IMG/VR virus record: IMGVR_UViG_2778261540_000003
From: a virus
Lineage: Duplodnaviria > Heunggongvirae > Uroviricota > Caudoviricetes
Direction: 5' to 3' (one strand)
Length of the DNA stretch: 64,000 bases
The translations under genes and the position numbers were made by a program. Under the pieces are notes generated by a model. The model was not told where the DNA came from. It searched no databases and saw nothing but the letters and a program-made list of their open reading frames with translations. This document shows positions 16-232 of this stretch, one piece after another. Each line of letters begins with the position of its first letter. Positions within the stretch are counted from its first letter, which is position 1.

Positions 16-32
16 ATTGCTCTAATAAATTT
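16..32 (+). promoter_or_regulatory. C1 repressor operator-like site (ATTGCTCTAATAAATTT) with an overlapping degenerate inverted copy
   Basis: Exact match to the remembered 17-bp asymmetric P1 C1 operator consensus; the same motif recurs at least 12 times in the window. Confidence 0.6.
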
Positions 33-206
33 ATTAGTGTAATATCGCCTCAATGAATCGTGATTTATAGAGCGATTTAGCTGTTAGCCGCGACAGGCGC
101 GGCGGTAAGCATGGCTGGGCCTAGTCCTCCCAGACAAACCACCGAGTTGCCAGGTTGACCATGCGCCTAAGTGGCAACGCCGAAGTGCGTTACGAGCTTC
201 CAGTTT

Positions 207-232
207 GCCCATCTTCGGGTGGGCGTTTTTTT
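207..232 (+). terminator. Rho-independent terminator (GCCCA stem, T7 run)
   Basis: gcccatcttcgggtgggc hairpin followed by ttttttt on the plus strand. Confidence 0.5.

Follow-up and report, generated by a model that had tools for sequence, protein, structure and literature searches.

The first 232 nucleotides of the DNA analysed here (a stretch of 64,000 nt, hereafter the window) are, in our judgement, likely to be the control region and leader of the ban operon of bacteriophage P1, from which transcription would yield either a short terminated RNA or a read-through transcript. Between an exact operator for the C1 repressor and an intrinsic terminator, this region carries a non-coding, pseudoknotted RNA element, which is homologous to the sequence located directly upstream of dicF in other phages. 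What makes P1 'dicF-like' is this shared upstream element and the architecture around it, while the predicted terminated RNA is a different one and not DicF.

Over positions 1-1600 the window matches Punavirus P1 records at 100% identity and the reference P1 genome at 99.3%. Its first nucleotide is position 68652 of AF234172, and the features of that record were converted to window coordinates (Table 1). All features of the finding map to existing annotation of this same locus, the P1 ban control region (AF234172 / NC_005856); for two decades the P1 record has shown the operator together with the promoters and a 'dicF-like region', and their discovery value is therefore small. The 'dicF-like' label in AF234172 comes without any defined RNA, and our literature search on P1 together with dicF or the ban operon found nothing relevant. 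Further along, the record lists tciABC, tRNA-Ile and ban, with ban about 2.6 kb downstream.

Table 1. Annotated and predicted features of the P1 ban leader and its surroundings, in window coordinates.
Feature	Position	Strand	Basis or remark
dmt (DNA methyltransferase), 3' end	1-25	+	stop TAA at 23-25; AF234172 annotation and frame read from sequence
C1 operator Op72a (= Oban a), exact 17-bp consensus	16-32	+	0 mismatches; AF234172 protein_bind
Promoter P1ban	17-45	+	-35 TTGCTC 17-22, -10 TAATAT 40-45; AF234172 regulatory features
Predicted P2ban, -10	26-31	+	AF234172 annotation
C1 operator Op72b (= Oban b)	27-43	-	2 mismatches; annotated in P1 and P7
Predicted primary short transcript, ~180 nt, Pban to U-tract	52-232	+	inferred from promoter annotation and terminator
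Conserved structured RNA element, ~95 nt, pseudoknotted	87-180	+	homology, covariation, covariance model
Element hairpin	87-92/98-103	+	comparative structure
Element pseudoknot, GCAUGG with CCAUGC	109-114/159-164	+	comparative structure
Element variable hairpin	115-119/129-133	+	comparative structure
Element long hairpin	144-154/166-180	+	comparative structure
'dicF-like region', GenBank misc_feature	140-241	+	AF234172 68791-68892
Variable 'sRNA body' (putative)	181-206	+	between conserved element and terminator
Intrinsic terminator	207-232	+	stem 207-213/218-224 (GCCCAUC/GGUGGGC), UUCG loop, G, U7 at 226-232
Conserved RNA, ~180 nt, with tmRNA-like tag frame	235-413	+	homology, frame, covariation
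tRNA-Asn, tRNA-Thr	~697-850		AF234172 annotation

A first-pass annotation of the window had reported a consensus C1 operator followed, 175 nt after its end, by a strong terminator, and both sites and the distance between them are confirmed here. The plus strand at 16-32 reads ATTGCTCTAATAAATTT, which matches the 17-bp asymmetric consensus of the P1 C1 operator without mismatch and is the published Op72a. C1-type sites with at most 3 mismatches occur 15 times in the whole window, against 0.27 expected from shuffled sequence. Op72a and Op72b overlap by 6 bp and jointly form a bivalent operator, which 'controls expression of ban' in the words of AF234172 and 'controls expression of trnRNA, ...' in those of the P7 record. 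According to the record annotation the operator also overlaps the promoter (-35 at 17-22, -10 at 40-45), and C1 is predicted to block initiation there. P1ban is taken from this annotation, a strict consensus scan making no call at that place, and transcription should start near A52/A53.

The hairpin at 207-232 is G+C-rich, has a stem of 7-8 bp and is directly followed on its 3' side by a U-tract, as expected of an intrinsic terminator. Its folding energy is -12.8 kcal/mol (z = -3.3), a value reached by 1 of 200 shuffled sequences, and it is the sole terminator-like site found when both strands of 1-1700 were scanned. A consensus scan found no sigma-70-like promoter between the terminator and the tRNAs. 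Since the ban operon is controlled by Op72 and Pban and no other sigma-70-like promoter was found before the tRNAs, the terminator is a branch point, at which a polymerase would either release a short RNA or read through.

The transcribed part of this region is non-coding. It could have been the 3' end of an upstream coding gene, but dmt stops at 25; its end overlaps the operator and does not extend into the transcribed region. As stated at first pass, the plus strand holds no convincing reading frame, the longest being of 33 aa with no match in Pfam or PHROG. On the minus strand a frame of 93 aa (84-365) is open in the window sequence, and a 'hypothetical protein' is annotated under the matching stretch in SJ46 and JL22, so that a protein encoded there was considered. 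In the U-tract of the terminator, the T-run is polymorphic among P1-type loci, with T7 in 37, T8 in 11 and T6 in 5, and in the T6 and T8 loci, which include reference P1 and P7, the frame is shifted and meets stops (16 of 53 loci). Because variation in the length of the run shifts the frame, we conclude that the ORF is not coding; it also has no Pfam or PHROG family match, and the substitutions that separate relatives across it are compensatory for RNA helices. A minus-strand protein is thus extremely improbable.

A sensitive BLAST search with 50-245 revealed that positions 88-182 are homologous, with 75-78% identity, to the region directly upstream of dicF in Qin and in many lambdoid phages. 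Set side by side, the Qin and P1 sequences are clearly homologous over the ~100 nt that precede DicF, and not in DicF itself. An nhmmer search that followed pattern scans of viral contigs and of one genome per species yielded 137 copies of the element, with 74 distinct sequences; besides P1, more than a hundred lambdoid prophage loci carry it, and among the hosts are Escherichia, Shigella, Citrobacter, Trabulsiella and Serratia. In the lambdoid phages, mEp460 and cdtI being examples, the element is found past the repressor gene in the leftward early operon: directly before DicF and dicB in mEp460, and in cdtI on the PL side, some 370 nt beyond cI. The Qin copy is about 850 nt from the promoter and follows three ORFs.

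The first-pass annotation had described the sequence between operator and terminator as GC-rich and stem-forming. This holds in so far as 62-190 has 58% G+C, is non-coding structured RNA and forms stems that are backed by comparison; the stretch is a separate conserved element, however, and not the body of a small RNA, and folding energy gives the stems no backing, the thermodynamic fold of 52-240 being not unusual (z = -0.9). Single-sequence MFE folds of 52-240 and of its Qin homologue were set aside, as they gave inconsistent structures, and a comparative analysis was chosen for that reason. The structure was drawn by hand on an alignment of 56 distinct sequences and judged by pair counts with controls; RNAalifold, applied to the same alignment, recovered part of it and cannot draw the pseudoknot.

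The drawn structure comprises a closing stem, a short hairpin, a variable hairpin and a long hairpin, together with a GYAUGG-CCAURC pairing into the loop of the long hairpin. Standard pairs fill 95.4% of the alignment cells concerned, against 34-55% when the 3' partners are slid, and 12 of the 35 pairs have changed on both sides, against a shuffle mean of 3.7, with none of 500 shuffles reaching 12. The pseudoknot itself differs in a compensatory way between P1 (GCAUGG/CCAUGC) and Qin (GUAUGG/CCAUAC). The lambdoid copies have an 8-bp closing stem (GUUGUGG/CCACAAC), also with compensatory changes, which joins the ends of the element; the P1 copy lacks this stem (pairs 16-23/128-135). With the covariance model of the element, window positions 62-190 score 95.7 bits. 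A single copy is present in the 64-kb P1 window and in each of the mEp460, cdtI and Qin segments searched, which hold partial rightward operons, and the model found no second copy at the other C1 operators of the window or on the lambdoid PR side. No Rfam 15 family matched at 87-180, and no mention of the element was found in the DicF literature searched. Nearly invariant unpaired nucleotides such as GGCGGUAAG and GGUUGACCAU suggest a binding surface.

The element is also strongly coupled to termination. An intrinsic terminator lies downstream of it in 123 of 128 copies, at a distance of 41-123 nt (median 74), and in the other five the hairpins are decayed or unusually long. Between element and terminator, at least eight RNAs unrelated to one another are found, among them DicF, the cdtI type and the P1 type, and most carry YCAGUUU; in P1, CCAGUUU at 200-206 is the motif common to most of the other body variants, DicF included. 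One form, seen in Serratia and Trabulsiella prophages and other contigs (L058, L179, L206, L210 and L219), has a Shine-Dalgarno-like AGGAG and then ATG TTC TAC CG. GGT ACC GCC running into the terminator, which suggests a short leader peptide or attenuator version of the cassette.

This coupling bears on another view of the P1 terminator, namely that it mainly ends the dmt unit or bounds the downstream RNA module, and that its position after Pban reflects mosaic history. This terminator is the only one found past the end of dmt at 25. Moreover, the P1 sequence from 204 onward, with the terminator and all that lies 3' of it, is shared by D6, where it follows a different gene; the D6 sequence upstream is unrelated, with no Op72 and no element, so that the terminator may belong to the downstream module. 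Yet the coupling of element and terminator persists in 123 of 128 loci although the genes upstream are unrelated, and the whole unit is conserved in P1 and P7, and we hold this view to be quite improbable. A P1-like contig (L095) diverges after about 272, and together with the D6 breakpoint this indicates that the leader has been assembled from exchangeable modules.

The leader reading that we favour can be set out as follows. In the lysogen, C1 bound to the bivalent operator (Op72a/b, 16-43) would block the overlapping promoters, as expected from annotated and published features. Once C1 is lost, RNA polymerase would start near 52 and transcribe through the pseudoknotted element and the short variable segment to the strong terminator. 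Polymerases that stop there would release an RNA of about 180 nt, whose 3' part (~181-232), with a single-stranded CCAGUUU, a terminator hairpin and a U-tail, is built like an Hfq-type small RNA. By analogy with DicF of Qin, which arises by early termination and RNase E trimming, trimming of this RNA may leave a small RNA derived from its 3' part. Polymerases that read through would continue into the downstream RNA genes, tciABC and ban. That the short RNA exists and has this size, that it is processed and that it acts in trans are things we infer. Counted against this reading are the missing DicF match and ftsZ complementarity of P1 (given below), the efficient look of the terminator, past which sufficient polymerase must reach ban, the presence of this terminator in D6 without Op72 or the element, and the absence of the closing stem from the P1 copy of the element.

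The repressor-controlled small RNA proposed at first pass accordingly stands in part. The operator is genuine and, by annotation, controls the promoter, the terminator is strong, the transcribed sequence is non-coding and the locus is homologous to that of dicF; it is not a self-contained small RNA gene, however, but the leader of a multi-kb operon with tRNAs, tciABC and ban.

Whether the P1 RNA could be DicF was addressed directly. The Rfam DicF model (RF00039, gathering threshold 48 bits) has no match in window positions 1-420 at E <= 10, nor in 1-4000, while Qin DicF, used as a positive control, scores 76.7 bits. Folding of whole-length duplexes with ftsZ gave meaningless duplexes with long loops, and a windowed search was used instead, with a simple duplex measure that leaves accessibility aside. 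By this measure the P1 segment pairs with the ftsZ start region at -14.4 kcal/mol in its best local duplex, against a shuffle mean of -19.2 kcal/mol; all shuffles tried match or beat it, and DicF itself reaches -22.7 kcal/mol. By the tests run, the P1 RNA is not DicF itself, and it probably does not target ftsZ. An earlier study that used BLAST on phage genomes likewise reported no significant similarity to DicF (PMC5069750). Compared with the label in AF234172, our analysis traces the likeness to dicF to the overall architecture and to the element that precedes DicF, and not to the DicF RNA.

The architecture is shared in several respects. DicF, in the dicBF operon of Qin, and the predicted P1 RNA both belong to a repressor-controlled phage operon, have the same element upstream, contain CAGUUU and end at an intrinsic terminator that the downstream genes must read through. 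The P1 body is, however, unrelated to DicF in sequence, the P1 unit stands at the extreme 5' end of its operon while DicF lies in a 3' UTR, and the P1 terminator is a short UUCG stem-loop whereas that of DicF is a long hairpin. Both loci are followed by an STnc100-like RNase III stem region, which in P1 is 1.2 kb further along. The P1 match to Rfam STnc100, at 1431-1551 on the plus strand, is below threshold (37.8 bits, E 7e-6); in Qin, STnc100-homologous sequence is directly 3' of dicF and holds the long stem of the reported RNase III cut, which gives the 72-nt DicF. P1 thus has the genomic setting of dicF, with the element upstream and the RNase III stem region downstream, and, given that the STnc100-like stretch adjoins dicF in Qin, the two halves of the locus are separated in P1 by some 1.2 kb of additional RNA cassettes. 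Hfq small RNAs of the SroC/MicL type, derived from 3' ends or leaders, also come as short RNAs from an early intrinsic terminator inside a longer unit, and upstream stem-loops may guide their processing; any processing, Hfq binding or targets of the P1 RNA are putative.

DicF is made by early Rho-independent termination and RNase E processing of the 5' end, with an RNase III cut for a longer form (PMC9438474, PMC5069750). This biogenesis lends some weight to the idea that the element is a processing scaffold or a stable RNA, one cassette in an array of processed non-coding RNAs, in which it would set the RNase E or RNase III cuts that release a small RNA or the element itself. RNase E cuts the 5' end of DicF just past the element, and RNase III, cutting in the long stem that comes next, gives the alternative 3' end. 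The closing stem of the lambdoid copies brings the ends of the element together, and the element is directly preceded there by the 3' arm of long hairpins like those which bracket other RNA cassettes. The P1 copy has neither closing stem nor upstream hairpin arm. We regard a role as scaffold or stable RNA as a serious possibility, somewhat short of an even chance.

The tight coupling to a terminator, maintained in 123 of 128 copies while the RNA in between varies, could also mean that the element and the terminator are a cis-acting control module. The element would then modify the polymerase or, through its fold, defeat the terminator, in function like the put RNA of phage HK022; Pban transcripts would run on across a long RNA region with little translation and into ban, and the short RNA would be a by-product. 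The positions fit such a role, the element beginning about 35 nt past the predicted start and leading straight into a strong terminator which has to be passed for the operon to be transcribed; no N-like ORF is found ahead of the terminator in cdtI, and the nearly invariant unpaired nucleotides, such as GGCGGUAAG and GGUUGACCAU, could be a contact site. The putL and putR sites of HK022 are also promoter-proximal structured RNAs before terminators in a phage early operon for which no dedicated antiterminator protein is evident, and by this analogy the suppression of terminators through polymerase binding is a candidate function of the element.

The comparison with put itself counts against this role. 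The putL sequence of HK022 was recovered from the genome by means of the residue constraints in PMC9378689. BLAST against the HK022 immunity region returned chance words only, with no sequence similarity between the element and putL, and the covariance model found nothing there. The words GCGCGGCGG and ACCAUGCG are common to putL and the P1 element; they stand in a different order and were treated as coincidence. HK022 has two copies of put per genome whereas the element is present once per phage, not once per early operon, and the put fold is a two-stem V shape whereas the element has three or four helices and a pseudoknot. The Qin element, about 850 nt from the promoter and behind three ORFs, also fits poorly with a promoter-proximal function. 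No conserved alternative pairing between the element and the terminator arms was found by eye, and a riboswitch-type attenuator was rejected since, again by eye, no alternative pairing holds across P1, Qin and the cdtI type. We consider a cis-acting module unlikely, and give equally little credence to its stronger form, in which the element would be a new class of RNA-only antiterminator, analogous to HK022 put with an unrelated fold. If true, the element would allow transcription initiated at Pban, or at PL in the case of lambdoid phages without N, to pass the small RNA terminator into a long operon. Beyond the scaffold and antiterminator roles, the remaining probability, a considerable share, goes to some other role of the element. 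The leader reading remains our preferred one, and the element is a testable candidate for the way in which phage operons pass a strong terminator or mature their small RNAs.

Directly downstream of the terminator, at 235-413, lies a second conserved RNA. Its first sign was a weak Rfam match to permuted tmRNA, driven by a tag frame at 294-326 (GCA AAC GAT GAT CTG ATG ATG GTA GCG GCC TAA), which reads ANDDLMMVAA followed by a stop. A sensitive BLAST search with 233-415 found homologues in 331 phage records that span very different families (P1-like, Ackermannviridae, N4-like, Drexlerviridae and Akira-like); most are unannotated and a few lie under 'hypothetical protein' calls. Four loci that were inspected are mostly near tRNA genes, and there is no constant neighbouring tRNA beside the homologues. 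Among 125 loci the frame has 16 peptide variants and 26 nucleotide variants, all of exactly ten sense codons and TAA; the peptides begin with AND or ANE and end in MAA, AVA, VAA or similar. A start codon is absent, synonymous differences are numerous and the other two frames are closed.

Compensatory changes are seen in a pairing that directly precedes the first codon and in two pseudoknots 3' of the stop, so that the start-less tag frame is flanked by pseudoknots, as in tmRNA. In this structure 90% of the cells are paired and 9 of the 18 pairs are compensatory; the pair count is reached by 2 of 500 shuffles and the covariation score by none of 500. Rfam tmRNA models give 24-33 bits, all below their gathering thresholds of 47-84 bits, and four divergent homologues each draw sub-threshold matches of the tmRNA family. 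No tRNA-like domain (acceptor stem, T arm, CCA end) was found, and ARAGORN called no tmRNA in the window or in the 125 homologous loci. A permuted, two-piece tmRNA was rejected, as the upstream inserts are without a constant T arm or CCA. The tmRNA-like RNA has its own near-consensus promoter in Akira-like phages. No earlier description of it was found in the literature searched, although one may exist, and this RNA deserves separate study.

Further structured sequences follow, and the analysis shows the region between Pban and tciA in P1 to be an array of RNA cassettes, the tmRNA-like RNA among them, common to unrelated phage families. Three long hairpins are found on the plus strand (~416-495, ~855-940 and ~1358-1434), with the 5' arm ACAACAGGTAAG(G/A)G and the 3' arm ..CTTTCC(T)GTTG. 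In other phage families, these arms are found on either side of the tmRNA-like RNA, the dicF-upstream element and STnc100-like units, and the hairpins have the appearance of RNase III-type processing stems that flank RNA cassettes. Their 3' arm (A/G)TGCTCTTTCC resembles the boxA sequence of rrn operons. Two annotated minus-strand genes, plp ('putative lipoprotein', 821-1198) and upl (1199-1390), are antisense to structured RNA cassettes; their translations look implausible (cysteine- and histidine-rich, of low complexity), and they may not be genes.

The hairpin at 855-940 (+) encloses a decayed class-II tRNA candidate with the T arm AGGGTTCGAATCCCT, for which ARAGORN makes no call. Somewhere within this tRNA region, a tRNA-Ser is annotated in D6 and a tRNA-Tyr in Ro157c2YLVW.

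A further observation concerns the 13 nt directly 5' of the terminator stem (194-206 on the plus strand, CTTCCAGTTTGCC), which are the perfect complement of GGCAAACTGGAAG at 50260-50272 on the plus strand. The latter sits in the late-gene region of prt/pro (portal, head protease), and by our estimate about 0.04 such matches are expected by chance. This complementarity could point to a phage target of the short RNA, or be a coincidence.

Finally, positions 553-698 (+), directly before tRNA-Asn, are 100% conserved between P1 and D6, whereas 500-552 varies. This segment holds the T-arm-like hairpins ACGGGTATATCCCGT and CAGGGTTGTGCATCCCCTG, and may be a further unannotated structured RNA or the remnant of a tRNA.
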